From Methanococcus maripaludis (GTDB lineage: Archaea; AGJL01; Methanococci; Methanococcales; Methanococcaceae), in NCBI RefSeq assembly GCF_002945325.1, contig NZ_CP026606.1, positions 1,590,001 through 1,622,000 of the forward strand: a DNA stretch of 32,000 nt. Reading direction: 5' to 3'. The translations under genes and the position numbers were made by a program. Position 1 is the first letter of the stretch, and each line of letters starts with the position of its first letter. The notes beneath the pieces are model-generated. The model worked only from the letters and a program-made list of their open reading frames with translations, was not told where the DNA came from and did not search any database. Below are positions 8,450-31,181 of this stretch, in pieces.

Positions 8450-8529
8450 CCTGTTTCACCATAACTGTAAATTGAAAAGATTAATAAAAATTTTTTAAAA
8501 AAATAATTGGAAATTAAATAATTAAAATA

Positions 8530-11912: not shown

Positions 11913-11961
11913 AATATTATATCCTTTAATTTTAATTTACAAATGTGCTGGTGTTTTTGAA

Positions 11962-15153: not shown

Positions 15154-16488
15154 ATGTGTGAAAAGATGAAAATTTCAGTTATTGGAACAGGTTATGTTGG
15201 GTTAATTCAAGCGGTAGGTTTGGCAAGTTTCGGGTTTGACGTTACGGGTATTGACATTGATGAATCAAAAGTTAAAATGTTAAATAATGGTGTTTGTCCA
15301 TTATATGAGGATGGTTTAGAAAAACTTTTAAAAAAACATGTTGGAAATAATTTAAAATTTACAACTTCTTATGAAGAAACTATTGATTCTGACGTTATTT
15401 TTTTATGTGTTGGCACTCCTCAGGACAAAGAAGGAAATACTGATTTAAAATATATTTTTTCAGCAGTTGAAATGTTAAAAAAACATTTTCAAAGTCAAAA
15501 ATGGTTGGTTATAAAATCAACAGTTCCAATTGGAACTAACCGTCTTTTAAAAGAACGTTTAACAGGGTATGATATCGAGATTATATCGAATCCCGAATTT
15601 TTAAAAGAAGGAGTCGCTTTAAAAGAATTTTTAAACCCTGAAAGAATAGTTTTGGGTTTTGATGAAAATGATTCATCATCAAAAGAAATTTTAGAAAAAA
15701 TATATAAAAATTTTAAAGAAAAAAATATTCCATTTATTTTAACAAACTATGAAACATCAGAAATGATAAAATATGCTTCAAATGCATTTTTGGCAACCAA
15801 AATTTCATTTATAAATGAACTTTCTAAATTGGCCGATAAAACAAATGCAGATATAAAAACAGTAGCTTATTCAATGGGACTTGATGATCGAATCGGAAAA
15901 AAATTTTTAAATGCAGGGATTGGTTATGGAGGGTCATGTTTCCCAAAAGATGTAAAATCCCTGATAAAACAATTTGAATATAATGGGGTAGTTCCAAAAA
16001 TTATAACTGCAACAAATAGTGTAAATGAAAATCAGATAAAATGGTTTTTTGGAAAAATTAAGAATTATTATGGTAATATAAATGGTAAAACCTTTGCAAT
16101 TTTGGGCTTAGCATTTAAGCCAGATACTGACGATTTAAGGGAAAGTGCAGGTATAAAATTAATCGATTTATTATTATGTGAAGGAGCAATTATTAAAGGA
16201 TATGATTATATTAAACAGGCGCGTGAAAATGCATGTAATATATACAAGTCAAATGCCTCAAAACCATTTCATGGCTCCAATTTTTATGTTTTGGATAATT
16301 TATATGATACGGTTTCCAATGTTGATGGAATAATTATAACGGTTGAAGACAATAAATTGAATTATGAGGATTGGTCAAATATTTTTAATTTAGCAAGCGA
16401 AAAAATAATTTTTGATGGAAAAAATATATTGCATAAAGAAAAAGTTGAAAAATTCGGTTTTGAATACTTTGGCGTTGGATTAAAATAA
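15154..16488 (+). CDS. ugd: UDP-glucose 6-dehydrogenase family protein
   Basis: ISVIGTGYVGL, and GYGGSCFPKD with the catalytic Cys. The start may be the ATG at 15166 (MKISVIG). Confidence 0.88.
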   Translation: MCEKMKISVIGTGYVGLIQAVGLASFGFDVTGIDIDESKVKMLNNGVCPLYEDGLEKLLKKHVGNNLKFTTSYEETIDSDVIFLCVGTPQDKEGNTDLKYIFSAVEMLKKHFQSQKWLVIKSTVPIGTNRLLKERLTGYDIEIISNPEFLKEGVALKEFLNPERIVLGFDENDSSSKEILEKIYKNFKEKNIPFILTNYETSEMIKYASNAFLATKISFINELSKLADKTNADIKTVAYSMGLDDRIGKKFLNAGIGYGGSCFPKDVKSLIKQFEYNGVVPKIITATNSVNENQIKWFFGKIKNYYGNINGKTFAILGLAFKPDTDDLRESAGIKLIDLLLCEGAIIKGYDYIKQARENACNIYKSNASKPFHGSNFYVLDNLYDTVSNVDGIIITVEDNKLNYEDWSNIFNLASEKIIFDGKNILHKEKVEKFGFEYFGVGLK

Positions 16489-16659
16489 TTTTGTTAAGAT
16501 TATATACTTTAGCCTATTTGAAAGAAGAATATCCAAAAAATAATTTAAAATTTTAAATCATTAACTGATACCTTTTCAATAGTGGTTAATGGAAAGTTTT
16601 AGGATATGCTCAAATTTCAGGGTTGTGTCTGACTAAAAACAATAACAATTGGTGCTACA

Positions 16660-18174
16660 ATGTCTTATAAAGAACGGGTTTTAAAAGGAGTAAGTTGGAA
16701 TTTTCTGCTTCTATTGGCAGCTGCACCAATTGGTTATTTTGTTAGGATTTTATATTCAAATGAAATCCCTAAATTAGATGTGGGTTTATTTTATGCAGTT
16801 TTCGATTTTTGTTGCATGATCGCTATTTTCAAGAATTTGGGACTAAATGCTGCACTGGTTAGGTTTATTCCAAAGTATTTACATGAAAAAAGACTAGATT
16901 TAGTTAAATCTTCGATAATATGTGCAGGGGTATTGCAGACTACTGTATCCTTAATTATGACCTTATTAATAATTTTGTTATCTTCATTTATCGCAACATA
17001 TTACATAAACAACCAAGGTCAATTTACGGGTCAGTTGGATTTGGTTATCTGTGTTTTAATTATTTTGAGTATTGGTTATTGGTTTCAAAGTATTATGGAC
17101 GTTGTTGCCAATAGTATATGGGGTTTTCAAAATCAAAAATATTATGGAACTATAAATTTTGTTAAAATATTTATGGTTTTAATTATATCATTTATTTTAA
17201 TACATGTTTTTGATGTGCGTACTGTTTTTACCCCAATATGCGCTTACACTTTAGCACCGATTTTAATGATTTTTATATATACATATATTTTTATTAAAAA
17301 GATATTTCCTGAATTTTTTATTGAAAAATTTTCATTTTCAAAAAAACTCACAAAGGACTTATTTAGTTATGGTTTACCACTTATGATGGGCAGTGCTGGA
17401 GCTTTAGTTTTAAATTATATCGACGGGATATGTTTAACTTATTTTGCAGGGTTAAATGCAGTTGCAGATTATAGGAATGTTGCAATGCCAACAGTCAGTA
17501 TTTTACGATATTTTGCAACAGCTGTTGGTGCAGTTTTATTTCCAATGAGTTCAGAATTATGGGAAATGGGGCATGGAGGCATATTGGGAAAAAGTGTCGA
17601 AAAGATATGTTTATATTCTTTTGTGGCAGTTTTTCCGATTACTGTTTTAACAGCATATTTTCCAGAAGTTATCGTAAATTTATTTTTTAACACTCAGTAT
17701 TTACCTGCAGCAGATGCTATAAGAATATTAAGTTTGGGAACTATATTTTTTACATTAAATAGTATAGGATTTAATGTTTTAAATGGGATCGGAAAGTCAC
17801 TATTATCTACAAAAATAATATATTTTGGAGCAATTTTTAATTTAATATTTAACATATTGTTAATACCAAAATTTGGGATCGTCGGGGCATCTGCAACAAC
17901 TGTTTTGGGGTATCTTTTAATGTGGATTTTGCAAGCACGGTATTTGGGTGACTTTATAAATTACTCAAACATGCTCAAGAAGTGGTTAATAACAACTCTT
18001 TTAGGAGTTTTTAGCTTAATTCCCTTGATATTCGTAACAAAAATTATAAATAATATTATTTTACAATTATCTGTTGGTATGGCCGTCTATTTGGGCGTAT
18101 ATGCACTGGGCATTATATTATTCAAAATTATAGAAATCGAGAAGTTAAAAGAAATGTTTAGAATAGGTATTTAA
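16660..18174 (+). CDS. Wzx-like polysaccharide/oligosaccharide flippase (MOP superfamily)
   Basis: 504 aa with about 14 hydrophobic segments and a polysaccharide-biosynthesis-protein-like layout. GGTG lies 5 nt upstream of the ATG. Confidence 0.75.
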   Translation: MSYKERVLKGVSWNFLLLLAAAPIGYFVRILYSNEIPKLDVGLFYAVFDFCCMIAIFKNLGLNAALVRFIPKYLHEKRLDLVKSSIICAGVLQTTVSLIMTLLIILLSSFIATYYINNQGQFTGQLDLVICVLIILSIGYWFQSIMDVVANSIWGFQNQKYYGTINFVKIFMVLIISFILIHVFDVRTVFTPICAYTLAPILMIFIYTYIFIKKIFPEFFIEKFSFSKKLTKDLFSYGLPLMMGSAGALVLNYIDGICLTYFAGLNAVADYRNVAMPTVSILRYFATAVGAVLFPMSSELWEMGHGGILGKSVEKICLYSFVAVFPITVLTAYFPEVIVNLFFNTQYLPAADAIRILSLGTIFFTLNSIGFNVLNGIGKSLLSTKIIYFGAIFNLIFNILLIPKFGIVGASATTVLGYLLMWILQARYLGDFINYSNMLKKWLITTLLGVFSLIPLIFVTKIINNIILQLSVGMAVYLGVYALGIILFKIIEIEKLKEMFRIGI

Positions 18175-18307: not shown

Positions 18308-19381
18308 GTGGAAAATATGGGAAAAATATATTATTATTTAAAAAAAGATTTGAATACTTTTGAAGGTAAGGATAAAATTAGTGGTGAAGTATACAATTAT
18401 CTGAAAAAATATTATTCTAATTTAGAAATTTTTGATGAGTTTTCTATATCCTATGGGGATGATGATATAATTCATATAAATTCTTCAGGAATTTTAGATT
18501 CTATTAAATATGGTAAAATGAATAAGAATTTAAAGATATACTCTCTTTATTCTAATCTGAAAGCAAATCCTATAACGCTCTTACGAGACTCTATTGATTT
18601 TTTTAAACTAAAAGATAAAAATTTAAAAATTTCATTATTTTATTTATTTAAAAGACGTTCATTTCCAATTTTTTTGAGTTTAATCCCTTGGTTTCTAATT
18701 AAAAAAATATTGGGACAAAATGAAGTTTTAATTTTGCCAAACAAATATCTTTACAAGAATTTAAATATAAAAACCGCTAAAATCATCCCCATTGGAATAG
18801 ATGCTGTTAAATTTCATAAAAAAAATATTGAAAAAAATTCAAAAATCACTGTAGCTTATGCGGGCCATCCCGCAGTCGACAAGGGTATTATCGAGGTTTT
18901 AAAAATATTTAGTCGGTTGGATAGTACAAAGTTTAGAAAAGTCCTGTTTTTAACAAATTTGAATATAAATTTAGACTACTTGAAAAAAATAGATCCGAGT
19001 GTTGAAATATTTGGGCCCCAAAAAGATATTGTAGATACATATAATTCGATAGATATTTTGATTTTACCCTATAGGCATGAAATCAGCAGCATTGCTAGCC
19101 CGCTAGTTTTAATTGAGGCTATGGCATGTGAGGTTCCGGTAATAACTAGTGATTTACCCCACGTTAAGGAAATAGGGGGGGAGATATTACAATATGTTAA
19201 ACCATTTGATATTTCGGATTTTGTTAAAAAAGTCAGTGATCTTGCAAATAATCCTGAAAAAAGATTGGAAATGGGAAAAAAATCTAGAAATATTGTTTTA
19301 GAATATTATGACGAAAAAGAAACATTAATGAAATATATGAAAATTTATGATACTGTGATTAAAAGGGACCAAAATGAATGA
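18308..19381 (+). CDS. Glycosyltransferase, GT4-like (GT-B fold)
   Basis: The C-terminal donor-binding region (ILILPYRHE...PLVLIEAMACEVPVITSD) matches the GT4 EX7E region. The N-terminal half is divergent. The ATG at 18317 is the more likely start (18308 is GTG). Confidence 0.75.
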   Translation: MENMGKIYYYLKKDLNTFEGKDKISGEVYNYLKKYYSNLEIFDEFSISYGDDDIIHINSSGILDSIKYGKMNKNLKIYSLYSNLKANPITLLRDSIDFFKLKDKNLKISLFYLFKRRSFPIFLSLIPWFLIKKILGQNEVLILPNKYLYKNLNIKTAKIIPIGIDAVKFHKKNIEKNSKITVAYAGHPAVDKGIIEVLKIFSRLDSTKFRKVLFLTNLNINLDYLKKIDPSVEIFGPQKDIVDTYNSIDILILPYRHEISSIASPLVLIEAMACEVPVITSDLPHVKEIGGEILQYVKPFDISDFVKKVSDLANNPEKRLEMGKKSRNIVLEYYDEKETLMKYMKIYDTVIKRDQNE

Positions 19382-20123
19382 AAAAAGTATAAAAAACGTA
19401 TTGGATTTGGCACAAGAACTTCGGTCAAATAATATAAGGTTTTTCTTTCATGATTACGATCGATGGATGACGAGTACTGATATCGATATTTCATTAAATA
19501 GCGATGATATAACTAATTTTCACAAAATAATGACTAAAAATGAATTTAAACTACTTTCAAAATTTCCTCCTTGGAAGTTATTTTATGTGAAATATCAAAA
19601 CGGAGACATAATTTTCTTTGACACCCATTTGGATGCATACGAAGGAGTTTCTAAGGATATTTTGTTTCCAAATTCATCAAATTACTTTTTGGACGAAAAC
19701 AAACAACTTTTTTATTATATATACCGAATCAGTATTGGACAACCTTGCTTAATTGAAATAATATCTCCATTTGTATATTATTTGGAGTATTTGCTACGAA
19801 CTTTATTTTTGTATCCTGAACGAATAAAATATTCGGCTGTTTTAACCGACAGATGGTTTTATGATTTAAATACTTCTCCGAACGCATCAAATAACATTGT
19901 GAAATTTTTAAATAAACTGCTTCCAAAACCCTCTTTGGTAGTTTATTTGTATAATGATATAGATGTTTTAATAACTAGAAAACCCGATCATCCAAAAAGT
20001 GATTTAGAAAGACAATTAGCTAGCTTTAATGAAATAGAAAATATTTTTGATTTAAAAATTAAATCGGGAAATAAAGGGGAAGTTATAAATGAGATTATGG
20101 ATAGGATTATTAAATTACTATGA
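19374..20123 (+). CDS. Hypothetical protein; possible nucleotidyltransferase-like N-terminus and P-loop-less kinase-like C-terminus
   Basis: 8-nt overlap with the upstream GT4 (ATGAATGA). Motifs are weak: TDIDISLNSDD ... FFDTHLD in the N-terminal half, and DRWFYDL ... PKPSLVVYLYNDIDVLITRK in the C-terminal half. No Walker A motif is visible. Confidence 0.5.
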   Translation: MNEKSIKNVLDLAQELRSNNIRFFFHDYDRWMTSTDIDISLNSDDITNFHKIMTKNEFKLLSKFPPWKLFYVKYQNGDIIFFDTHLDAYEGVSKDILFPNSSNYFLDENKQLFYYIYRISIGQPCLIEIISPFVYYLEYLLRTLFLYPERIKYSAVLTDRWFYDLNTSPNASNNIVKFLNKLLPKPSLVVYLYNDIDVLITRKPDHPKSDLERQLASFNEIENIFDLKIKSGNKGEVINEIMDRIIKLL

Positions 20124-20170
20124 TGCTTATTTTTGAATATGTTAAATAAAACTGATTTTACGTGGTTTAA

Positions 20171-20845
20171 ATGGAAAAAAACTTTAAAATACAATATTTT
20201 GAAAAATATGGTGGTGGGCATCTACCTTCAAAAAAATATCTAATTGATATTCTAAGCAAACTACCTAAAAATGCGAAAGTTTTAGATGTGGGCTGTGGAA
20301 AAGGTACATATCTCAAAGAAATTCATAAAATCCGGCCTGATTTACTATTGCATGCTGTTGATATTGGGGATGTTCAAGAATATTTGGCAGATTATATCTT
20401 ATTTAAAAAATCCTGTGGAGATAATCTACCATTTAGCGATGAAATGTTTGATTTTGTGTTTTGTTTACATGTGTTAGAGCATGTTCAGAACCCCCATGAG
20501 TTTATGATTGAATTTAATCGGGTTTTAAAAAAAGATGGTTTTACTTATATCGAAATGCCATATTATAAAAGAGCATATATTCCAGATGGAAATATGAATT
20601 TTTGGAGTGATCCTACACACATACGACCATACAATCATAATTCCGTGGATAAGCTTTTAATCGAAAATGGTTTTGAAACTTTAAAAATAAAACTTTGGAG
20701 GGACTGGATCCCTATTTTTTTAGGCCCTTATTTAATACTAAAAAGGATATTATTCAATGATATGGATGCCCTATCGACATTTTTTGCAAATTTATATGGT
20801 TGTGCAATAGGTGGGTTGGGAAAAAAGGTAAAAAACATTAAATAA
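20171..20845 (+). CDS. Class I SAM-dependent methyltransferase
   Basis: Motif I VLDVGCGKGTY, followed by FDFVFCLHVLEHV, typical of Methyltransf_11-type enzymes. Confidence 0.8.
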   Translation: MEKNFKIQYFEKYGGGHLPSKKYLIDILSKLPKNAKVLDVGCGKGTYLKEIHKIRPDLLLHAVDIGDVQEYLADYILFKKSCGDNLPFSDEMFDFVFCLHVLEHVQNPHEFMIEFNRVLKKDGFTYIEMPYYKRAYIPDGNMNFWSDPTHIRPYNHNSVDKLLIENGFETLKIKLWRDWIPIFLGPYLILKRILFNDMDALSTFFANLYGCAIGGLGKKVKNIK

Positions 20846-20862
20846 AAAATTTTGGGAATATT

Positions 20863-21921
20863 ATGAAAGTATTAATAATCGCTCTTTCGGGAATTGGAAA
20901 TTTAATAATGGCATTTCCAATGATAAACGAATTTAAAAAAAAGTACCCTGATTCAGAAGTAAATTTTTTAGTATCTCCTCGCGGAACAAAAGAACTTCTG
21001 GATGGTCAAGATTTTGTAAATAATATCTTCACGCTTGATTCAGAATTAATATTAGATCTATTCTTAAAGAATAAATCCAAAAAGTTAATCTCTCAATTAA
21101 ACGGGGATAATTACGATCATACAATCACAATATACCCCTCACAGGGGATATTTTCCGCCATTTTAATGAAATTAATTAATTCCAAAAATAGAATCCAGCA
21201 CAAATATAATTTTAAAGTTTTTAAAGACATAGGATAGTTTTTGACATATTCTCCAAAAATAAAAGATAATCACAGCGTATTTGTAAATTTGGATTTACTG
21301 GACGATTTAAGTTTAACCTGCAATGCTGAAGATTTAACCTATAATTATAATTTAAAAAATGAAAGTGTTAAATTCGCCAATGAATTTTTTGTAGAAAACG
21401 AATTAAAAGATAAATTTGTTATCGGTATCCATCCTGGTGGAAAAAATGACCTGATTTGGAAGAGGTGGGACATCAAAAACTGGCAAAATCAGATTGAATT
21501 ATTCGAAAAAAATTATTCGAATAAAATTAAATTCTTAATATTTCTAGGACCTGATGAAAAAGAATATGAAATTTATTTTAAAGATTTTAAGAGTGCAGTA
21601 ATCGTAAAAGACGTTTCTTTACAAAATACAATCTCATTAATAAGCAAGTGTGGTTATTTTATTGGTAACGACAGCGGTTTGTCTCATTGTGCATCGTTAT
21701 TTAAAATTCCACAAAGCGTAATTTTTGGAGGAACAAGTTACGTACACACCGCCCCCTTTTCAGATAAAGTCAATTTAATACTTCCAAAAAATTATGATGT
21801 ATTTTATATTCCTTATTATGGATTTATAAAAAAGCCAGTGAATTTGCTGGTAAATTTAAAGGCTGAAACCGTATTTAAATCGGTATGCTCCCACATGAAT
21901 TCTTTAAATTTACTCAAATAA
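20863..21921 (+). pseudogene. GT9 (heptosyltransferase-family) gene interrupted by a single in-frame TAG at 21235-21237
   Basis: ORFs 20863-21237 and 21241-21921 are in the same frame, separated only by TAG-TTT. The N-terminal part has the GT9 start (MKVLIIALSGIGNLIMAFPMI). The C-terminal part has GIHPGG...KRW and GNDSGLSHCA. The combined length of about 352 aa equals a full GT9. Confidence 0.75.
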
Positions 21922-23178
21922 TTCCATAAATTTTTCATAATAGTCATAATCTTCTAATTTCTGTTCTGTTAAAACATCTTCCCTATATCCAGTTATTTCT
22001 TTTACAAAGTTTTCAACTGTCGGTTTGGTATATATGCCACATTTTAACCAATCTATGACTTCAGGGATTCCTCCCCTATCGCTTCCGATGACGTGGCATC
22101 CATTATACGCCCCTTCTAAAACAACCCTACCAAAAGGTTCATGCCAAAGGGATGGAACCAACAAAATATCGGCTGCTCGGTAATAATCTTTAAGTTCTGA
22201 AATTGATAAATATCCAAGATATATTAAATTGTCCTGTTTTTTTTTCAAAAATAGCTCTTTTAAAACCCCGTTTCCAATAACAATAAACAAATGCTCTTTT
22301 AATTTCTCAGAAAGATCACTTAACATATGGGCTCCTTTTTCTTCTGTAAGACTACCTGCATATAAAACAATTTTTTTATTTTCAGGTAAATTTAATAACG
22401 ATCTTGCTTCTTTTTTGGACAATTTGGATACAATGTCGTCAGATATTGGGTTATATATAACTTTTATTTTATTTTTATCGACATTTAGCACATCAATATA
22501 TTTTTCTTTAACAAAGTTACTTATCGCGATCAAAAAATCGAAAGAAGACAGAACGGATGTTTTATTAATTCTTTTTTTCATTTCATGCTCTAGAATTTTG
22601 TTTACTGTACCTTCAGTACCCATACATGCATTTAAATTATTTAGTGAGCACCCCTCACAGAGGCCCCCTGATTTATTTAAGCCCCTATTATAACAAAATA
22701 GGCCAAAATCTCTCAAATGAGCAATTTTTTTGGCAGATGTATTTATTGGACCAACTGCCAAAATGGATTCTAAATTATTGGCATGAATCACGTCAAATTT
22801 CTCATTTTTTAAAATTTTTTTTACCCATTTTCTTAGTTCATATGTTGAATATCTAACGTAATGATTTAAAAATGTGTAAAATATGGGTTTTGTTTTTTTG
22901 TAGACTTCATGGGAAGTTTTTTCTCTTTTTTTGAATAAAAAATGTCTAAACGACCCAAATCTTATGATTTTTAGGTTATTTTTTTTGTCAATTTTTGTTT
23001 TGGGCGAACTATAATTTGGGGTTAACACTACAACTTCATGGCCTTTTTTTACGAGATTATCAACTAATATTTTTAGACTTATCTCTGCTCCACCCATGAC
23101 ATATGGCGGAAAATATTCTGCAACAAACAGGAATTTCATAAAATCACTTAATGTATATATTTGTTTTCTTTTAACCAT
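21910..23178 (-). CDS. Glycosyltransferase, GT4 family
   Basis: FVAEYFPPYVMGGAEISLKILVDNLVKKGHEV is a GT4 N-terminus. The C-terminal PSLWHEPFGRVVLEGAYNGCHVIGSDRGGIPEV is the EX7E region. The start is ATG at 23178 or at 23139 (MKFLFVAEY); the latter avoids overlap with hldD. Confidence 0.8.
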   Translation of the reverse strand: MVKRKQIYTLSDFMKFLFVAEYFPPYVMGGAEISLKILVDNLVKKGHEVVVLTPNYSSPKTKIDKKNNLKIIRFGSFRHFLFKKREKTSHEVYKKTKPIFYTFLNHYVRYSTYELRKWVKKILKNEKFDVIHANNLESILAVGPINTSAKKIAHLRDFGLFCYNRGLNKSGGLCEGCSLNNLNACMGTEGTVNKILEHEMKKRINKTSVLSSFDFLIAISNFVKEKYIDVLNVDKNKIKVIYNPISDDIVSKLSKKEARSLLNLPENKKIVLYAGSLTEEKGAHMLSDLSEKLKEHLFIVIGNGVLKELFLKKKQDNLIYLGYLSISELKDYYRAADILLVPSLWHEPFGRVVLEGAYNGCHVIGSDRGGIPEVIDWLKCGIYTKPTVENFVKEITGYREDVLTEQKLEDYDYYEKFMELFE

Positions 23179-24068
23179 GTAGTATAATCTCGAACTGCAT
23201 CTTCAAAATTCCATCTGGGTGTGTATCCTAAATAATTTTCCGTACGGGTTAGATCTGCCTGAGTAAAATCTTGGTAAAACTCTGCATAGGTGTTTTCTAT
23301 ATATTCGGGTTCGTAATTAAACCCTAAAATTTCATTTAAAGTATTAACAATATGATTAAATGAAACTGCAGTGCCATTCCCTGCATTCACAATACAACTT
23401 TCTTTCGCATGTTGTGCTAATAAATTTGCCCGAACAATGTTTTTAACATAAACTTGGTCTCTTTGCTGTTCTCCCCATTTGAATATTTTTGGATTTTTTC
23501 CTTCAATCATCTGTTTTGTTATTTGCCAAATCATTGAAGCCATTTTGCCCTTGTACTGTTCTCGAGGTCCAAAAACATTAAAATACCTTAATCCAACAAT
23601 ATGGTTTTCAGGATATTTTTCCATATATTTTTTAGCAATGCAGTCACAAGCCCATTTTGAAAAACCGTATACATTGTTTGGTTTTCCAGCATATTCTTCT
23701 TTTTGAGGAGATACTGCATCCCCATATGTGGCTGCAGAAGATGCGTAAACAAACTTCACGTTATTGGTTACAGCAAAGTTTAGAAGTTTCTTAAATCCAT
23801 CTGTATTTATTCGCATCATTAATTCTTGATCATGTACTGTGGTATCAGTTATCGCAGCTTGGTGAAATATTATATCCACATCTTTAACAATATCTTCAGT
23901 AACATCAAGTATATTTCCAGAGATAACTTCCCCTTCAAACCCGATAAGATTTTTAAAGTGCCCTGATGAAAAATCATCTAAAACTAACACTTCATAGTTT
24001 TTGTTTTGTAATTCTAATGCTAGATTGGAACCTATAAATCCTGCACCGCCAGTTACCAGAGCTTTCAT
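23148..24068 (-). CDS. hldD: ADP-L-glycero-D-manno-heptose 6-epimerase
   Basis: VTGGAGFIGSN, YASSAATYG, YGFSK (YxxxK), RYFNVFGPREQYKGKMASM and FTQADLT follow my recollection of E. coli HldD almost motif for motif. The ATG at 24068 has GGTGAT 3 nt upstream. The ORF-track start at 24128 is probably too long. Confidence 0.9.
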   Translation of the reverse strand: MKALVTGGAGFIGSNLALELQNKNYEVLVLDDFSSGHFKNLIGFEGEVISGNILDVTEDIVKDVDIIFHQAAITDTTVHDQELMMRINTDGFKKLLNFAVTNNVKFVYASSAATYGDAVSPQKEEYAGKPNNVYGFSKWACDCIAKKYMEKYPENHIVGLRYFNVFGPREQYKGKMASMIWQITKQMIEGKNPKIFKWGEQQRDQVYVKNIVRANLLAQHAKESCIVNAGNGTAVSFNHIVNTLNEILGFNYEPEYIENTYAEFYQDFTQADLTRTENYLGYTPRWNFEDAVRDYTTWLKENKYIH

Positions 24069-24081
24069 TTTATCACCAAAT

Positions 24082-25131
24082 TTATAGTTTTGATTCATCA
24101 ACTGATTTTTGTATTGTATCAAAAACATCTTCGACAGTTATGTTTTCCATGCATTTTTTTCCATAGGGGCATGGTTTTGGAAATTTTCCCCATAGATCAT
24201 AACAAGGACTGCATCCAACCTGTTTCCAGAGGAATGTACTTTTTTTATGTAATGGGGCTTTTTCACAAGGGTGTGTGGGGCCGAAAATGCTTAAAACTTT
24301 TTTATTAACTGATGCCGCCAAATGCATGGGGCCGCTGTCGTTACATACAACAATATTACATTTTTTTAACAAAGCTGCACTCTGTTTCAATGTAGTTTTT
24401 CCGATTGCAGAAACACAGGTATTTTTTTTAAAAATCTGTTTTTCTAGTTCTTTATCTGTATTTCCACCAATTAATAATACTTCAAATCCTTTTTCGTTTA
24501 GATTACTTATTAATTCAATATAATTTTCGTTACTCCACCGCCTTAAATCGTCATCACCAACGCCAATGTTTTTAGCGCCTCCTGGGCAGATACCCACAAC
24601 TAATTTACTATTTAGTGAATTCTCATTCCAAAAATTATCTGCAAAGTCCATATCATTTTTATCCAGAAATAAATCCATATTACAATTTTTATGTTCTGAA
24701 TTGATTCCTAATCCTTTTATTAGATCTAAATAATAAAAAATTTCGTGTTTTCTTCCAAAGTACGGAACTTGATATGTCAAAAATTTTCCTTCATTAAATC
24801 TATCAAAACCTATCCTTTTTTTAATTCCAAACAGCAATGAGGTGAAATTAAAAATCAAGTGTTTATCCAAAACAAAAACAACGTCGTAATTTTCTTTTCT
24901 AATTTTAAAAATTAGATTTATCCAGTCAAAAAAACGTTTTTTGAAAAATATATCTTCATCAAATGTGATTGTGTTATCCAAATAACAATTTCCTTTCAAA
25001 ACTTCATGGGAATAATTTCCAATTAAATAGTGAAGTTTTGCATCAGGAAAATTATCTTTTAAATTCTTAATCAATGGGGTAGTCATTAATGTGTCGCCTA
25101 TTGCCCCAATTTTGAATAATAATATTTTCAC
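24082..25131 (-). CDS. GT9-family glycosyltransferase (ADP-heptose-dependent heptosyltransferase homologue)
   Basis: MKILLFKIGAIGDTLMTTPLI, ICPGGAKN...RRW, CNDSGPMHLAASV and a C-terminal CSPC-x10-C-x5-CM cluster. GTG start. Confidence 0.85.
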   Translation of the reverse strand: MKILLFKIGAIGDTLMTTPLIKNLKDNFPDAKLHYLIGNYSHEVLKGNCYLDNTITFDEDIFFKKRFFDWINLIFKIRKENYDVVFVLDKHLIFNFTSLLFGIKKRIGFDRFNEGKFLTYQVPYFGRKHEIFYYLDLIKGLGINSEHKNCNMDLFLDKNDMDFADNFWNENSLNSKLVVGICPGGAKNIGVGDDDLRRWSNENYIELISNLNEKGFEVLLIGGNTDKELEKQIFKKNTCVSAIGKTTLKQSAALLKKCNIVVCNDSGPMHLAASVNKKVLSIFGPTHPCEKAPLHKKSTFLWKQVGCSPCYDLWGKFPKPCPYGKKCMENITVEDVFDTIQKSVDESKL

Positions 25132-25191
25132 AGTTTCACGTCTTATAGTGTATTACTTCTATTTTAAAGTAAAGTTTAGGTTTTTCTAAGA

Positions 25192-26343
25192 TTAACACTC
25201 GGGTAATTTTGGATCGTTAAAATCACCAGTTACCGAATTAAGAACATCGTTTACTTCGATTAGGTCCATGCATTTTCCATCTAATTTGCATTTTTCAAAT
25301 TTTCCTTCGTGGACATTTATACACGGGGAACATTTTAGATTTTCTGCATTATATAATGCGATATTTTGTTTACCGAATGGGGCAAACCGTTCGGGTAAGT
25401 TGGGGCCGAATAATCCAACTGTTTTAGTACCCATTGCTGCAGCAAGGTGCATTGGCCCTGTATCATTTGAAATAAATACGTTAAATTTTGTTAATAAGTA
25501 AGAAAATTCTCTTAAATTTGTTTTGGAAGCAAAATTATATATTTTATTTTTAAATTTTTTATTAACTAGTTTTAAAACTTCTTTATTTATTATATTGTCA
25601 CTACCGCTACCCGTTAGTACAACATAATATCCTTTTTCAATTAAATTTTCGATTAATTTGGCAAAATTTTCTTTTTTCCACGTTCTCCAGGGTGCAGTTT
25701 CCGCAGTACCGCAGTGGATTCCAATTAATGGTTTATCATGTAAGGAATACTCTTTTAATAATATATTAACCTTTTTTTGGTCTTGAATTGTATAGTTTAA
25801 AGGAATTAATTTTTTAGGCAAATCGCTGTCAATAAACGGCCCTGATAGATTACAAAAATTATAAACTGCATGAATTTTGTCGTCATATTTTATTTTAAAA
25901 TCATAAAGTTTATCTCTACCAAGTCCTTTAAATCCGATCGTATTTTTGCCTAAAAACCACCCTAATATGGCAGATATGTTAAAATAAGGTTCTGTATCTA
26001 TAACTACATCGTATTCTTTAAATTTTTTTAGAATTTCCCAAAAATTTTCCAATTCAAAAATTTCATCAATAAAATCAACATTTTCAAAAACGCTTTTACT
26101 CCTTTTCGTAGTTAAGATTGTTATTTTAGTAATTTCTTTTTCACAGGGATTTTTAGAATATTTAACGGCATTAATCAATGGTAGGGTTAAAATACTTTCA
26201 CCCAGTGTCCATAACCTAATAATTAGTATATTATGTTTTTTGGAAATATGGGGCTGTTTTTTTGATTTTAGCAGGCATAATGAATAAATAATAACATTTC
26301 CAAAGTATTTGTCAATATTTCGCATGAATGGAATCAAATTCAT
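25192..26343 (-). CDS. GT9-family glycosyltransferase (heptosyltransferase homologue) with an N-terminal extension
   Basis: IHCGTAETAPWRTW, SNDTGPMHLAAAMGTKTVGLFGP and CSPC-x10-C-x5-CM. The ATG lies 4 nt after the gmhB stop. Confidence 0.85.
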   Translation of the reverse strand: MNLIPFMRNIDKYFGNVIIYSLCLLKSKKQPHISKKHNILIIRLWTLGESILTLPLINAVKYSKNPCEKEITKITILTTKRSKSVFENVDFIDEIFELENFWEILKKFKEYDVVIDTEPYFNISAILGWFLGKNTIGFKGLGRDKLYDFKIKYDDKIHAVYNFCNLSGPFIDSDLPKKLIPLNYTIQDQKKVNILLKEYSLHDKPLIGIHCGTAETAPWRTWKKENFAKLIENLIEKGYYVVLTGSGSDNIINKEVLKLVNKKFKNKIYNFASKTNLREFSYLLTKFNVFISNDTGPMHLAAAMGTKTVGLFGPNLPERFAPFGKQNIALYNAENLKCSPCINVHEGKFEKCKLDGKCMDLIEVNDVLNSVTGDFNDPKLPEC

Positions 26344-26347
26344 AAGA

Positions 26348-26854
26348 TTACCTATTTTTTTCTATAATTTCAACGCATTCAACTAGATTTTTGCCCATAA
26401 AATCTCCAAAGTGCTGTTTTAAATTATCACAAATCATTATAGTTTTGCAGCCTACGCTTTTTCCACATAAAATATCACTTTTACTATCTCCAATCATCCA
26501 GCTTTTGTTAAAATCGATGTCCAATTTTTCTTTGGCATCATATAACATTTTATTTTCAGGTTTTCTACAATTACAGGTTCCATTTAAGTGAGGGCAGTAA
26601 AATATATCGTCGATTTCAGGAAGTTCCTTTAACATATGTTCGTGGACTTTTAAGAGGTCTTTTTCAGACATTATACCTTTTCCAATACCCTGCTGGTTTG
26701 TGATAACAACCAGTAAATACCCTAACTCTTTTAGTTTTTGCAATGCGATTTTGACTCCTTCGAGTATTTCAAACTCCGAAATTGATTTAACATAATCATT
26801 TTCAAGTTTTTTATTAATCACTCCGTCACGGTCTAAAAAAACGGTTTTACTCAT
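26348..26854 (-). CDS. gmhB: D-glycero-D-manno-heptose 1,7-bisphosphate phosphatase (HAD family)
   Basis: HAD motif I FLDRDGVIN, VITNQ, the Zn-binding CPH...C.CRKP loop, and GDSKSD. The ATG at 26854 has GGAGAT 4 nt upstream and overlaps the hldA 3' end by 8 nt. Confidence 0.88.
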   Translation of the reverse strand: MSKTVFLDRDGVINKKLENDYVKSISEFEILEGVKIALQKLKELGYLLVVITNQQGIGKGIMSEKDLLKVHEHMLKELPEIDDIFYCPHLNGTCNCRKPENKMLYDAKEKLDIDFNKSWMIGDSKSDILCGKSVGCKTIMICDNLKQHFGDFMGKNLVECVEIIEKNR

Positions 26855-27767
26855 GGGTATCTCCAAAAAGTTCCTCTAAGGTTACCGTGGCAGTGCCTGA
26901 TTTTGAAACCACTATTGAACTTGCCCGATTTGCAAGTTTTACTGCATCTATTAATTCATAACCTTTATCTATTGCGTAAGCGAGTGTGGCGATAAATGTG
27001 TCTCCGGCACCAGATACATCGTGAACATCTCTTACTTTTCCACAGATATGTTCGATTTTTCTATCTTTTGTGAATACACTAACTCCTTTTTCGCTTCTAG
27101 TAATCACGAAATTGGAGTTAAATCTTTCAACCAGTTCTAAACCTGCAGACTCAACGGAATCGTCGTTATTTATTATTTCCCTTCCAAGGATTTTTGAAGC
27201 TTCAAAAAGATTTGGTTTTATCAAATAAACATCATTATACATATTGATGTTTTCCGGTTTTGGGTCAACGAGTATTTTACCTTTAAATTCCTGTTTAAGT
27301 TCTGAAATAAGATTTTGAGTTAATAATCCTTTATTATAATCAGAAATTATTAAAACTGATGAATCATTTAAATTTTTGAAATTGGAGATTATTTCATTGA
27401 TAATACTGTTCGAAAAAGCTTTTTTTTCTTCATAATCTGCCCTTAAAAGTTGTTGATTGTAACCCACTGCAACAAATCGATGTTTTAAAATGGTTGGGCG
27501 TCCATCTGATACGAATTTATAAGTTATACAATTTTCATCACAGATTTCTGCTATTTTTTTTCCAAATTCATCATTTAAATTAGCAGAACTAATCAAAAGA
27601 ACAGGATGTTTTAAAAAAGCAATGTTGTTTGCGACGTTTCCTGCGCCTCCAATGGCATATTTTTTGTTCAAAACATTTAAAATTGGAACTGGAGCTTCAG
27701 GATTTATTCTTTCAACTTTTCCATAAGTATATTTATCAAGCATTACGTCTCCTAACACCGTTATCAT
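26847..27767 (-). CDS. hldA: D-glycero-beta-D-manno-heptose 7-phosphate kinase (stand-alone HldE domain I, PfkB family)
   Basis: VLGDVMLDKYTYGKVERINPEAPVPIL is the RfaE/HldE domain I signature. GGAGNVANN, and the PfkB anion-hole motif DVSGAGDTF. The ATG at 27767 lies 1 nt after the hldC stop. Confidence 0.9.
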   Translation of the reverse strand: MITVLGDVMLDKYTYGKVERINPEAPVPILNVLNKKYAIGGAGNVANNIAFLKHPVLLISSANLNDEFGKKIAEICDENCITYKFVSDGRPTILKHRFVAVGYNQQLLRADYEEKKAFSNSIINEIISNFKNLNDSSVLIISDYNKGLLTQNLISELKQEFKGKILVDPKPENINMYNDVYLIKPNLFEASKILGREIINNDDSVESAGLELVERFNSNFVITRSEKGVSVFTKDRKIEHICGKVRDVHDVSGAGDTFIATLAYAIDKGYELIDAVKLANRASSIVVSKSGTATVTLEELFGDTHE

Positions 27768-27768
27768 G

Positions 27769-28248
27769 TTAAACACCTTTTAAAATGGAAGATACAATAT
27801 TTGTGGTGGAAAAACCATCTACTAAATTTATAATTTTTATTTTTCCACCATATTCTAAAATTATTTTTGATTCAGGAAGACTTTCTATCGTATAGTCCCC
27901 TCCCTTTACATGAACATCTGGTTTAATTAGTGATATAAGATTGAGCGGGGTTTCTTCATCAAATGAAATTACAAAATCAACAGGTTTAATTGAATTCAAT
28001 ACTTCGATTCTGGATTCAAGTGGGATAACCGGTCTTGATGATCCTTTTATTTTTTTAATCGACAAATCTGAGTTTATACCAACGATTAAAATGTCTCCAA
28101 ATTTTTTAGCTTCTGAAAGATATTTAACGTGGCCTTTATGGAGTATGTCAAAACATCCATTGGTAAATACTATTTTTAAGTTATTTTTTCTTAGATCTTT
28201 AATTAAATCCTGCAATAAATCTTTATTTGATATAATCACTATTATCAC
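27769..28248 (-). CDS. hldC: D-glycero-beta-D-manno-heptose 1-phosphate adenylyltransferase (stand-alone HldE domain II)
   Basis: [26 protein letters not shown]...KG..RP and KGGDY...STT match HldE domain II. The GTG start forms a GTGA overlap with the gmhA stop. Confidence 0.88.
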
Positions 28249-28799
28249 ATCAATTTTTTTTCAACTTCTTCGCAAATAACATGATAAATAGTTAAATGAC
28301 ACTCCTGAACTCTTGGAGTATTATTCGAAGGAACTATTAATGGTATATCAACTAAATTATTTAGTTTTCCGCCGTCTTTTCCCAAAAGTCCAATCGTGTA
28401 TAATCCTTTATTTTTAGCAAGGTTTACTGCATTTATCACATTTTCTGAATTTCCACTGGTCGAAATTCCAATTAATATATCGCCAACAGTGCCTAATGCT
28501 TCAACCTGACGTTCAAATATTTTTTCAAATCCGTAATCATTTCCAATGGCAGTTAATATGGAAGTATCAGTACTTAATGCAATTGCAGGATATCCTTTTC
28601 GTTTTAATTTGTATCTTCCAACAATTTCGGCAGCAAAATGTTGTGAATCTGCAGCACTTCCCCCATTGCCACAAATTAATATTTTATTTCCATTTTTTAA
28701 TGCATTTACAATTATATTTATGGCATCAATTAATTTATGTTCATTTTTTGATATAAAGTCTAATTTTACTTTTGAACTTTCTTCAAAATATGTTTTCAT
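28245..28799 (-). CDS. gmhA: Phosphoheptose isomerase (sedoheptulose-7-phosphate isomerase, SIS domain)
   Basis: [34 protein letters not shown] and QECHL are GmhA hallmarks. GGTGGA lies just upstream of the ATG. Confidence 0.92.
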
Positions 28800-29742
28800 T
28801 ATCCACCCTGTTTAAAAATTTTAAATTATTCCATTTTCCAAAGTACGTATGTTTTCCATTTAATTTAATATGGTTTAATGTTAGGCCATATTTTAAATAT
28901 AAAAGTTTTGGAACTCTTGCAACAACATTTATTTCGTATTCGTTATCATTTAAAATGAAAAACGGTTTTAAATAATCAATTTTTGGATTATTATATGAAA
29001 TATTTACAAGTGCAGGGTAGTAAATTCCATTAATCTCACCAAAAAACCAACCTTTAATTTTATCCCACAATGACTGTTTTAAATAAATATACTGACAATC
29101 AAAGCTTTTTTCATTGAAATCTATTGAAAATTCTCTAATTCTCGTGTTATTTAATTTTTTATTAAATAAATCAATCGATTTTGAAAGATCCGTTTTATAT
29201 TTTAAAATTAGATTTTTTGGAGGTAGTTCTTTTTTTAAAATGCAAGTTTTAACGATATCGTATTCTTTTAATTTATATGCTGAATTTAGGTTTGAAACAT
29301 ATTCTTTTAATCCCATATTATATTTTGAAAAATAATACGTATTTCCAAAAATTAAGTCTTTTACAAAAGGTTTATAAATATCTGGAACTTTATTTTCAGC
29401 ATAATTTAAAATTAATTCTTTTAATCTTTCTTTTTCAAAATTATCAAGTTCAAAGTAGGTTTTTGAAGGGTTTAAATTGTTATTTTTTAAAAATATAATC
29501 GATTCTTTTTCAGAATTAAAAAGCGGAATTTCGTTGAAATAGTAAAGCATTTTAAATAATGGGTAATTTTTGCCATAAATTGCTAAATCATTTCCAATTT
29601 TTTCAATTTCCAATTTTTTTAAAGTACTTTCATCAATTTCAGGTTCATTATTTTTGTAAATACAGTCCAAAATATTTAAAAAATCTGAAATTTCTTCGTT
29701 ATTATTTTCCTTTTTAATCTCCAGAAATAAATCAGATAACAT
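28783..29742 (-). CDS. Hypothetical soluble protein (319 aa), first gene of the heptose operon
   Basis: ATG with GGGGG 5 nt upstream. Its 3' end overlaps gmhA by 17 nt. N/K/Y-rich with no hydrophobic segments and no motif I can assign. Confidence 0.55.
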
Positions 29743-29822: not shown

Positions 29823-31181
29823 GTGCTTGGTGAAATCTTGAAACTTTTTGGGACTTCTGGGATTCGAATGAAAAATTTAGATCCTTTAATTGCATACAAG
29901 GTTGGTTTTGCAATTTCAAAGAATTTTAAAAAGGCAGTTATTGGAAGAGATACTAGAACTACTGGAAACTTAATTGAAAGTGCGATCACGGCAGGACTTC
30001 TTAATGGGGGCTGTGACGTAACTACGATTGGCATGGTTCCAACTCCAGTTTTAGGTTATTCTGCAAAAGACTATGATTTGGGAATTATGATTACTGCATC
30101 TCACAATCCACCTGAATACAACGGGATAAAGTTGTTTAATAAAAATGGAACTGCATTTGATCTTATGCAGGAAAAAAAACTTGAAGATATAATTAACAAT
30201 GACGATTTTAATGAAGGTACCTGGGATAATATTGGCTGTATATTGGAAGACAAAACCGCAGTTAAAAAGTATTCTGAGTATATTTTACAAAGTTTGAATA
30301 TAAATACGAATTTTAATGTTGTAGTTGATTGTGCAAACGCAGCAGGATGTGTGGTTTCTCCAACCATATTTACTGAAGCAGGTTGCAAAGTAATTTCTGT
30401 AAATTCGCACTGTGATGGAAGATTTGTTGGAAGAATGCCTGAGCCAAATGAAACAAACTTGAAAGAAACCGTAGATATTATAAAAGGCTTAAATTCAAAC
30501 GGTAGGAATTATATTGGGATTGCACATGATGGTGATGCTGACAGGATGATTGCAATTGATGAACTTGGAAGAGTTACCGATTTTGATAAACTTTTAGCGG
30601 CATTTTGTAAATATCTGGTTCAAAAAACAGGTGCTGATAAAATTGTGACAACTGTTGATGCTTCAATGGCAATTGAGGAATATTTAAACGAATTTGGGGC
30701 CAAAGTAATAAGGACAAAGATTGGAGATGTTGCAGTAGCTGAAGAACTTGAAAAAACAGGTGCTATTTTTGGAGGGGAACCTTCTGGAACGTGGATACAT
30801 CGCGATATTCATTTAACGCCTGATGGAATTCTTTCGGGACTTAGGGTTTTAGAAATGATGGAATTTTACGGCAAAAAATTGCATGAAATTATTGATGAAG
30901 TTCCGTCATACTATAATATGCGTGAAAAAATATCGTGCCAAGATAATTTAAAACAGGAAGTAATGGATTACATTTCAAAAGAAGGCGAAAAAATATTTGA
31001 AACGAAACCTGAAACTCTTGATGGGGTTAGATTTTCATTTGAAAAGGGCTGGATATTAATACGACCTTCAGGAACTGAAAGCTACGTTAGAGTTAGGGTT
31101 GAAGCAAAAGAAAAAGATTTTGCAGAAAAATTAATGAAAACAGGAATTTCAATGGTAAAAACAGGAATTTCTGGAAATTAG
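29823..31181 (+). CDS. glmM: Phosphoglucosamine mutase (alpha-D-phosphohexomutase family)
   Basis: LFGTSGIR, the active-site TASHNPPEYNGIK, metal loop AHDGDADR, GGEPSG and IRPSGTE. The start may be TTG at 29838 (MKLFGTSGIR) with GGTGA 4 nt upstream. Confidence 0.87.
   Translation: MLGEILKLFGTSGIRMKNLDPLIAYKVGFAISKNFKKAVIGRDTRTTGNLIESAITAGLLNGGCDVTTIGMVPTPVLGYSAKDYDLGIMITASHNPPEYNGIKLFNKNGTAFDLMQEKKLEDIINNDDFNEGTWDNIGCILEDKTAVKKYSEYILQSLNINTNFNVVVDCANAAGCVVSPTIFTEAGCKVISVNSHCDGRFVGRMPEPNETNLKETVDIIKGLNSNGRNYIGIAHDGDADRMIAIDELGRVTDFDKLLAAFCKYLVQKTGADKIVTTVDASMAIEEYLNEFGAKVIRTKIGDVAVAEELEKTGAIFGGEPSGTWIHRDIHLTPDGILSGLRVLEMMEFYGKKLHEIIDEVPSYYNMREKISCQDNLKQEVMDYISKEGEKIFETKPETLDGVRFSFEKGWILIRPSGTESYVRVRVEAKEKDFAEKLMKTGISMVKTGISGN

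Follow-up and report, generated by a model that had tools for sequence, protein, structure and literature searches.

We analyzed a 32,000-nucleotide stretch of the Methanococcus maripaludis genome (RefSeq assembly GCF_002945325.1, contig NZ_CP026606.1, positions 1,590,001 to 1,622,000 of the forward strand; hereafter the window, with positions counted from its first letter) and found that the minus-strand interval 21910–29742 encodes a full predicted pathway from sedoheptulose-7-phosphate to ADP-L-glycero-beta-D-manno-heptose, together with heptosyltransferase-like glycosyltransferases of family GT9. The window comes from the M. maripaludis JJ lineage and covers its strain-variable ‘glycan biosynthesis cluster 2’. 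We consider it probable that this locus is a JJ-lineage strain-specific N-glycan assembly cluster, in which the GT9 enzymes use ADP-L,D-heptose on a lipid-linked glycan. The finding is real, functionally plausible and mostly already known: the ADP-heptose pathway at cluster 2 of strain JJ was reported in 2025 (PMC12667266), so its novelty is lower than held by an earlier reading made from the letters and open reading frames (ORFs) alone (the sequence-only reading), and RefSeq already annotates the genes this way. The new detail is a nonsense mutation in one GT9 gene (GT9c) and a 474-bp deletion in a P-loop gene, where a near-identical sister genome keeps both genes intact.

In the ORF listing, nine consecutive minus-strand genes fill the interval, overlapping or lying 4–60 nucleotides (nt) apart, in the order RecJ-like ORF, gmhA, hldC, hldA, gmhB, GT9a, GT9b, hldD and a GT4 gene. 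Families were called using curated Pfam and NCBIfam profiles, with the equivalog cut-offs as thresholds and sequence matches to the Protein Data Bank (PDB) as a second line. Profile E-values for the named operon genes run from 1e-40 to 1e-90, which excludes chance matches, and all five pathway enzymes match solved heptose-pathway structures (E from 7e-24 to 1e-65). The minus-strand operon of GmhA, HldC, HldA, GmhB and HldD that the sequence-only reading had proposed is therefore borne out by the ORF listing and the profile searches, and its claims of family-defining motifs and of a complete route from sedoheptulose-7-phosphate to ADP-heptose are supported by the curated hidden Markov models and the solved-structure homologues. 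It was silent on two genes of the interval, the GT4 gene (21910–23178) and the RecJ-like ORF (28783–29742). The pathway genes are, in amino acids (aa) and bits:

28245–28799, minus strand: gmhA, sedoheptulose-7-phosphate isomerase, 184 aa (TIGR00441 239.2 bits, above the cut-off of 209.45; PF13580, SIS_2).
27769–28248, minus strand: hldC, cytidylyltransferase-fold heptose-1-phosphate adenylyltransferase (TIGR02199 207.3 bits, above 181.5).
26847–27776, minus strand: hldA, PfkB-type heptose-7-phosphate 1-kinase (TIGR02198 289.7 bits, below the cut-off of 345; ribokinase next at 82 bits).
26348–26866, minus strand: gmhB, D-glycero-D-manno-heptose-1,7-bisphosphate 7-phosphatase, HAD-IIIA, 172 aa (NF006506 153.5 bits, cut-off 178).
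23148–24128, minus strand: hldD, short-chain dehydrogenase/reductase (SDR) family ADP-L-glycero-D-manno-heptose 6-epimerase (TIGR02197 300.4 bits, above 274.6).

GmhA matches the phosphoheptose isomerase 1TK9 (E 1e-55) and has orthologues 77–78% identical in Methanocaldococcus sp. 28A and Methanothermococcus sp. Ax23. For HldA, the TIGR02198 score is 3.5 times that of the next family, the sole PDB match is 4E84, a D-beta-D-heptose 7-phosphate kinase (E 9e-49), and the translation carries a GAGD motif. GmhB resembles the GmhB structures 3L8E/2GMW (E 7e-24) and shows DRDGV and the zinc-loop motif CPH...CNCRKP in its translation; its best family is the beta-type NF006506 (under the cut-off, as listed), followed by the alpha-type NF050049 at 119.6 bits, scores from which an anomer preference is unreadable. 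HldD matches 3SXP (E 1.4e-65) and 1EQ2 (E 2.7e-46), with the motifs GGAGFIGS, YGFSK (YxxxK) and QYKGKMAS read from its translation; its true start is likely 24068 or 24098 rather than 24128, and an identical protein is already in NCBI as the M. maripaludis ‘ADP-L-glycero-D-manno-heptose-6-epimerase’. HldC matches Burkholderia HldC (5X9Q, E 4e-36), and its translation contains HKGH (of the HxGH type) and a C-terminal LVDGFSTT, in which STT is kept and position 5 of the (F/L)xxGxSTT motif is Phe, where the STTR5 form has Arg. The STTR5 Arg has been linked to CTP/UTP promiscuity, for which the motif is not strictly required (PMC11461863, PMC11573728). Because Phe replaces this Arg, ADP-heptose is likely the sole product of the window’s HldC.

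Assigned by family, GmhA, HldA, GmhB and HldC lead from sedoheptulose-7-phosphate to ADP-D,D-heptose, and HldD from there to ADP-L,D-heptose. Strong family membership argues that HldD epimerizes C6 to give ADP-L-glycero-beta-D-manno-heptose and that the full pathway is encoded. The other known branch, to GDP-D-glycero-alpha-D-manno-heptose, was considered and rejected: neither a GHMP kinase (HddA-type) nor an HddC-type guanylyltransferase was found in the window, and the one NTP_transferase present is classed as GalU by its equivalog model (361 bits, above 327) and reaches just 52 of the 300 bits required for HddC. Taken with the family matches, including a cytidylyltransferase-fold enzyme and an SDR epimerase, this points to the ADP, beta-anomer, L-glycero branch, as the sequence-only reading had also concluded.

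The candidate users of this sugar are three GT9 genes, all of which exceed the PF01075 gathering cut-off of 22 bits:

25192–26343, minus strand: GT9a, predicted heptosyltransferase, 383 aa (PF01075 138 bits).
24082–25131, minus strand: GT9b, predicted heptosyltransferase, 349 aa (PF01075 136 bits).
20863–21921, plus strand: GT9c, third GT9, a pseudogene here (W125 to TAG, 21235–21237; PF01075 67 bits on the intact form).

Two intact GT9 genes had been placed between gmhB and hldD, and both are there; the third, expected on the opposite arm, is indeed on the plus strand but is not intact, being interrupted by the TAG codon. None of the three reaches the equivalog cut-offs for the lipopolysaccharide (LPS) heptosyltransferases HepI/II/III (WaaC/WaaF/WaaQ): GT9a scores 104 against 134.6, GT9b 133.5 against 134.6 (TIGR02195, HepII) and GT9c 73 against 170. 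Judged by these profiles, the GT9s are heptosyltransferase-like and not orthologues of the LPS enzymes. Among PDB entries, GT9b matches 3TOV (2.6e-18), WaaF (9e-18) and WaaC (1.7e-7). In an alignment with WaaF, 3TOV and WaaC, all three GT9s retain the N-D-(S/T)-G-x-x-H motif for ADP-heptose binding, and the position of the WaaF Lys is Lys or Arg in each. The column of WaaF Asp13 holds Asp12 in GT9b, Glu across the GT9a clade and Asn in GT9c; in WaaC, the residue at this column is the proposed catalytic base.

The AlphaFold model of GT9a (predicted local distance difference test, pLDDT, 92; predicted template modelling score, pTM, 0.91) is a GT-B fold with an extra N-terminal helical pair. It matches WaaF 1PSW (E 2e-19, template modelling score (TM) 0.66–0.76), the Veillonella GT9 3TOV (TM 0.72–0.79) and WaaC (TM 0.60–0.73), and is more distant from TibC (TM about 0.55). 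This bears on the proposal of direct, cytoplasmic transfer of heptose by the GT9s to Ser/Thr of proteins, the reaction of the bacterial autotransporter heptosyltransferases TibC/Aah. TibC-type enzymes are GT9-like users of ADP-heptose, and GT9a and GT9b share a C-terminal four-cysteine motif (CSPC...C...C; CSPCINVH...C...C in the GT9a clade), nearly invariant over 41 clade members, that may bind a metal; TibC is an iron protein (PMC4358343). However, only GT9b matches the Aah/TibC family TIGR04414 at all, at 21 bits against a cut-off of 200, the GT9a model lies nearer to WaaF, 3TOV and WaaC, and the operon shares an N-glycan locus with a flippase. We regard direct protein heptosylation as the least probable of the alternatives, and the model comparison weakly favors a lipid-linked acceptor, the kind on which WaaF and WaaC act.

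The four-cysteine motif is, to our knowledge, not a feature of WaaC or WaaF, and the GT9a clade further carries an N-terminal two-helix extension of about 35 residues. A protein 100% identical to GT9a is present in NCBI as an M. maripaludis GT9 protein, orthologues 64–69% identical occur in five Methanocaldococcus genomes, and distant relatives (40–58%) come from Woesearchaeota, Altiarchaeota, Nanoarchaeota, Aenigmarchaeota, Patescibacteria and one Thermodesulfobacteria metagenome-assembled genome (MAG). As a tentative proposal, to which we give somewhat less than even weight, GT9a and GT9b may represent an uncharacterized clade of heptosyltransferases, mainly from archaea and the candidate phyla radiation (CPR), with a Glu base, the four-cysteine motif and the helical extension. 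Acting on a dolichol-phosphate-linked oligosaccharide, they would put L-glycero-D-manno-heptose on archaeal S-layer and archaellin N-glycans, and this JJ lineage would be without the third heptosylation step and a kinase-like decoration. If true, Archaea would gain their first L,D-heptose glycan and their first defined heptosyltransferase.

The surface-glycan destination that the sequence-only reading had suggested fits the surroundings of the operon, which include a Wzx-like flippase, five glycosyltransferases and one methyltransferase for the cluster as a whole, at the position of the archaellin and S-layer N-glycan genes of strain S2 (PMC12667266). The remaining genes are:

21910–23178, minus strand: GT4 glycosyltransferase (GT-B, retaining-type), 422 aa, the last gene of the operon (PF00534 88 bits, PF13439 65 bits).
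20171–20845, plus strand: class-I S-adenosylmethionine-dependent methyltransferase, 224 aa, candidate sugar O-methyltransferase (PF13489, PF08241).
18308–19381, plus strand: GT4 glycosyltransferase, 357 aa (PF00534, PF13692).
16660–18174, plus strand: Wzx/AglR-like oligosaccharide flippase, 504 aa (PF01943, Polysacc_synt, 136 bits).
15154–16488, plus strand: UDP-glucose 6-dehydrogenase (TIGR03026 415 bits; AglM-like NF041297 337 bits).
14275–15150, plus strand: GalE-family epimerase, a 4-epimerase-type SDR (TIGR01179 181 bits).
13393–14241, plus strand: galU (TIGR01099 361 bits, above 327).
29823–31181, plus strand: glmM, conserved flank (PGM_PMM domains I–IV).
28783–29742, minus strand: RecJ-like ORF, 319 aa, first in the transcription unit (NF040701, E 6e-14).

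The plus arm, which converges on the heptose operon, runs from a pst operon through PEP synthase (phosphoenolpyruvate synthase), a phosphopantetheine adenylyltransferase-like gene, a transporter, galU, the GalE-like epimerase, UDP-glucose dehydrogenase, the flippase, GT4, the P-loop gene and the methyltransferase to GT9c. Past glmM, the extended loci of matching assemblies continue beyond the window with glmU, dcd and two small hydrogenase membrane subunits. Glycan biosynthesis cluster 2 is defined as MMP1074–MMP1092 and in S2 holds the agl genes for sugars 2–4 of the archaellin and S-layer N-glycan (PMC12667266); the flanks of our locus correspond to it, with glmU/glmM on the MMP1074 side and galU/epimerase on the MMP1092 side. 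In strain KA1, an analogous cluster lies within cluster 1 (PMC12667266).

The RecJ-like ORF overlaps the start of gmhA by 17 nt and is preceded by TATA-like boxes and a GGGGG ribosome-binding site. It aligns only to the C-terminal two-thirds of archaeal RecJ/GAN models (positions 161–409 of 449 in NF040701), and the DHH catalytic part therefore appears to be missing. A homologue that is 50% identical also lies between glmM and gmhA in Methanothermococcus sp. Ax23 (7942–8886 of the fetched locus), and a literature search for the ORF as MMP1078 found nothing. An Rfam scan of the window gave zero matches.

In the mechanism we propose, GmhA, HldA, GmhB, HldC and HldD would supply ADP-L-glycero-beta-D-manno-heptose from sedoheptulose-7-phosphate, and GT9a and GT9b, as inverting GT-B enzymes, would take it up at the cytoplasmic face of the membrane, as would GT9c in the sister strains, and add alpha-linked heptose to a dolichol-phosphate-linked oligosaccharide. 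The two GT4s would help to build that oligosaccharide from UDP-hexose and UDP-hexuronate supplied by GalU, the epimerase and the dehydrogenase. Given its cluster context and the O-methylated heptose of Methanothermococcus thermolithotrophicus, the methyltransferase is probably a sugar O-methyltransferase. The Wzx-like flippase would then move the finished glycan outward, and AglB, encoded elsewhere, would transfer it to the S-layer protein, archaellins and pilins. Because GT9c and the kinase-like P-loop gene are inactivated, the glycan of this genome would probably be truncated or less decorated than that of the sister strain.

Alternatively, the pathway could operate as described and deliver heptose to a product independent of AglB, such as an O-linked glycan, a glycolipid, or a secreted or capsular polysaccharide made via a lipid carrier and the Wzx-like flippase. 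A flippase with several glycosyltransferases is equally typical of Wzx-dependent polysaccharide clusters, AglB lies outside the window, and M. maripaludis has two variable glycan clusters whose products are uncharacterized in strains other than S2 (PMC12667266). Against this, no Wzy-type polymerase or chain-length regulator was recognized among the window’s ORFs, S2 makes its N-glycan from the same locus (PMC12667266), and the known Methanococcales heptose sits on an N-glycan. The latter is the N-glycan of the archaellins and S-layer of M. thermolithotrophicus, which ends in alpha-D-glycero-D-manno-Hep3OMe6OMe, as summarized in PMC8821640 (citing Kelly et al, 2020); by that account, Methanococcales do have a characterized heptose glycan, of which the sequence-only reading had been unaware. 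We consider a product outside the AglB pathway unlikely.

Several points weigh against the preferred reading, that of an N-glycan cluster with GT9s using ADP-L,D-heptose. The NCBIfam equivalog cut-offs are missed by HldA, GmhB and each of the three GT9s, and where the catalytic base is presumed to lie, GT9a carries Glu rather than Asp. In CAZy, a non-heptose activity is assigned to family GT9 as well, and the donor and acceptor of the GT9s are predictions here. In the one Methanococcales heptose structure solved, as PMC8821640 gives it, the sugar is D-glycero and not L-glycero. The core locus of Methanothermococcus sp. Ax23 has neither hldD nor GT9 within 10 kb. Neither AglB nor an initiating transferase is in the window. 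Finally, a search of literature supplements for biochemical, transcript or glycan data on this strain turned up only a zero-flux model reaction.

Some of these points would suit a different role, in which the GT9s transfer no heptose, or its D-glycero form, and ADP-heptose goes to a GT4 or to another purpose (a soluble metabolite or natural-product precursor). Besides the scores of the three GT9s under the HepI/II/III cut-offs, the catalytic Asp is Glu in GT9a and Asn in GT9c, and in Ax23 the core is followed by GT4 and a flippase, with no GT9 in that 10 kb. However, GT9 genes repeatedly adjoin heptose genes or hldD in loci of Methanococcales, DPANN archaea and Methanosarcinales, and the nucleotide-sugar-binding motifs are conserved. 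Moreover, with a beta-linked donor, the product expected from a retaining GT4 is a beta-heptoside, but the known archaeal heptose is alpha-linked. We therefore hold this role of the GT9s to be improbable.

Returning to the cluster itself, two of its genes carry lesions. In GT9c, an in-frame TAG at 21235–21237 splits the ORF into 124 and 226 aa; the gene is intact (TGG, Trp125, 352 aa) in GCA_013761225.1 and in two SRR123956xx assemblies, and four independent DRR6809xx assemblies share the stop. The second lesion affects the gene between GT4 and the methyltransferase:

19374–20123, plus strand: P-loop gene remnant, coding for 249 of the 407 aa of a two-domain protein (474 bp deleted in frame at 19748|19749).

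The deletion takes out residues 126–283 of the 407-aa protein, including the Walker A motif GTDGSGKT, and the gene is intact in GCA_013761225.1. The 407-aa protein has no Pfam or NCBIfam match, and a search of 5.8 billion proteins gave only 10 relatives, including one from Thermococcus nautili. Its predicted fold combines an N-terminal alpha/beta domain with a P-loop domain resembling dTMP kinase, and in the model of a full-length homologue (93% identical; pLDDT 82) the C-terminal half matches thymidylate kinases. As a guess, it could be a sugar or nucleotide kinase.

Sequencing error was rejected for both lesions: assemblies from 4–5 independent read sets (DRR680971-74) are 100% identical to the window, so the TAG and the deletion are real in this lineage. 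Recoding of the GT9c TAG, by pyrrolysine or read-through, was likewise rejected, as the near-identical sister genomes have TGG at this codon; we know of no use of pyrrolysine in Methanococcales.

Over the 32 kb, the window and GCA_013761225.1 differ by seven changes: a 6-bp indel, the 474-bp deletion and five single-nucleotide polymorphisms (SNPs). All five SNPs fall within 21236–29371 (GT9c W125*, HldA S255S, HldC S79S and two missense changes in the RecJ-like ORF), with zero in the remaining ~22 kb; under a uniform model, the chance of finding all five in a 9.7-kb stretch is ~0.003 (calculated post hoc). The concentration of SNPs in the heptose part of the cluster, together with the two lesions, suggests that selection, a relaxation of constraint or recombination has centered on this glycan locus. 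The 6-bp indel (TTTAAT) is at 11924, intergenic after the PEP synthase gene; over the first 19.7 kb, nothing else separates the window from the sister genome. Short Logan contigs (SRR270616xx) were considered as expression evidence and rejected: one ends 1 nt from this indel, and the others have ends shared with or near those of DRR-run contigs or within ~25 nt of the SNP at 28847, so these look like assembly-graph breaks rather than transcript ends.

A second type of cluster was seen in JGI 3300035529, SRR11801449 and SRR11802023, 94.5% identical over window positions 19749–23141. The 407-aa gene, the methyltransferase, GT9c (intact) and GT4 are all retained there, followed by another GT4 and a 347-aa epimerase in place of hldD and GT9b. 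The plus-arm module thus circulates between different glycan clusters.

Among other genomes, a scan with HldA gave as best matches Methanocaldococcus sp. 28A (70%) and Methanothermococcus sp. Ax23 (62%), followed by bacteria, DPANN archaea and Methanosarcinales MAGs at 37–44%. When all cluster proteins were compared with the fetched loci by tblastn, the four-gene core gmhA-hldC-hldA-gmhB was kept at 62–78% in both Methanococcales genomes. In Ax23, the syntenic run is glmM, RecJ-like ORF, gmhA, hldC, hldA and gmhB, then GT4 and a flippase, and the missing hldD agrees with the D-glycero heptose of M. thermolithotrophicus. Orthologues of HldD at 71–76% occur in Methanocaldococcus fervens, M. indicus, M. 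vulcanius and sp. 28A and in Methanotorris igneus and M. formicicus, and its next relatives are from Desulfofervidaceae and Aquificae (55–66%). In M. vulcanius, the order is GT9, GT4, hldD, GT9, GT4, with none of the core genes within 9 kb, and M. igneus has hldD and GT9 within one glycan cluster. GT9 was linked to the heptose pathway or hldD in 9 of the 16 archaeal loci fetched with HldA, as well as in M. vulcanius and M. igneus. From these comparisons, the system is widespread in Methanococcales, and because the core and hldD/GT9 occupy separate loci in other members, the two modules are separable, with the JJ operon joining both.

Three observations on the Methanocaldococcus relatives stand apart. 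First, the GmhB of Methanocaldococcus sp. 28A (10925–11821 of the fetched locus) is a 298-aa protein with a C-terminal HEPN domain (PF05168, E 4e-24), an odd fusion for a sugar-phosphate phosphatase. Second, Methanocaldococcus hldD/GT9 clusters adjoin a sulfotransferase (M. vulcanius M7, CP001787.1 62907–81824; sp. 28A, 16560–17495 of the fetched locus). Third, the M. vulcanius cluster also adjoins a full set for the supply of 3'-phosphoadenosine-5'-phosphosulfate: ATP sulfurylase, adenosine-5'-phosphosulfate kinase, a DHH phosphatase and a TauE-type exporter. The sulfotransferase and supply genes hint at sulfated, heptose-containing glycans in Methanocaldococcus.

These relatives also bear on the origin of the operon. 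One-block horizontal acquisition, which the sequence-only reading had raised for testing, is not supported, given orthologues of 62–78% across Methanococcales and the separate loci of the core and hldD/GT9 there. A recent import from an LPS-making bacterium, now silent or a decaying relic, would account for a cluster that varies between strains (PMC12667266), for the nonsense mutation and 474-bp deletion in two of its genes, and for the presence of all five SNPs inside it. However, the closest relatives of every gene are in other Methanococcales (62–78%), then in DPANN archaea, CPR bacteria and thermophilic bacteria (40–66%), and LPS model organisms are not among them. GC content is 0.28–0.33 across the cluster, the same as in the rest of the window; the eight genes from gmhA to GT4 and the RecJ-like ORF are all intact, and the hldA and hldC SNPs are synonymous. 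We rejected a recent one-block import on the orthologues and the flank-like GC, and judge the wider scenario very improbable.

For M. maripaludis, the finding is a confirmation and leaves existing beliefs unchanged. Its practical value is as an experimental handle: the host is a model methanogen amenable to genetics, and the pathway lies together with a flippase, a methyltransferase and candidate transferases. A natural strain pair with and without intact GT9c and P-loop genes raises interest slightly; work on the locus could define the first archaeal heptosyltransferases and show how strain-specific surface glycans differ. Differences in glycans between strains have been discussed for M. maripaludis adhesion and corrosion (PMC12667266), and by analogy they may matter for recognition by viruses or predators.

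Among known systems, the bacterial ADP-heptose pathway (GmhA, HldE or HldA+HldC, GmhB, HldD) consists of the same five families with the same predicted chemistry. Separate kinase and adenylyltransferase proteins are found in Burkholderia HldA/HldC (4E84, 5X9Q), as in the window, and the window’s HldD resembles HP0859 of Helicobacter pylori (3SXP). The bacterial route to ADP-L-glycero-beta-D-manno-heptose was reportedly described by Kneidinger and colleagues in 2002. In contrast to the bacterial systems, the host here is an archaeon that has no LPS or 3-deoxy-D-manno-octulosonic acid (Kdo)-lipid A acceptor, its HldC is without the STTR5 Arg of Burkholderia HldC, and its HldA and GmhB score below the cut-offs for the bacterial equivalogs.

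Like WaaC/WaaF/WaaQ, the window’s GT9s belong to the Pfam GT9 family; they keep the N-D-x-G-x-x-H motif as well as the basic, donor phosphate-binding residue, and the GT-B fold of the GT9a model is closest to WaaF and WaaC. The GT9a clade differs in being mainly from Methanococcales, DPANN and CPR and in its N-terminal extension, Glu and CSPC...C...C. The acceptor must also differ from Kdo2-lipid A, and is presumed to be a dolichol-linked glycan.

The agl cluster of M. maripaludis S2 (aglO, aglA, aglL, aglXYZ, aglU, aglV; MMP1079–1088) has the same position, between glmM/glmU and galU/epimerase, and the same logic of nucleotide-sugar genes, glycosyltransferases and a flippase for a lipid-linked N-glycan. 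Its gene content is entirely different, with the JJ type carrying the heptose operon instead. S2 is said to make a heptose-free tetrasaccharide (work of Kelly and colleagues from 2009). The 2025 report on these clusters calls it only ‘the archaeal tetrasaccharide’ (PMC12667266).

Heptose is also found in the N-glycan of Thermoplasma acidophilum, and archaeal heptose enzymes make ADP-heptose in vitro, according to PMC11461863 and PMC11573728, which cite Tang et al (Science, 2024). The closest comparison is M. thermolithotrophicus, of the same order, for which PMC8821640 describes a galacturonic-acid-rich glycan with an O-methylated terminal alpha manno-heptose; the window, too, encodes a methyltransferase, alongside a UDP-glucose dehydrogenase and one 4-epimerase-type SDR. 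By that account the M. thermolithotrophicus heptose is D-glycero-D-manno, whereas hldD and the two to three GT9 genes of the window predict an L-glycero heptose and more than one heptose per glycan.

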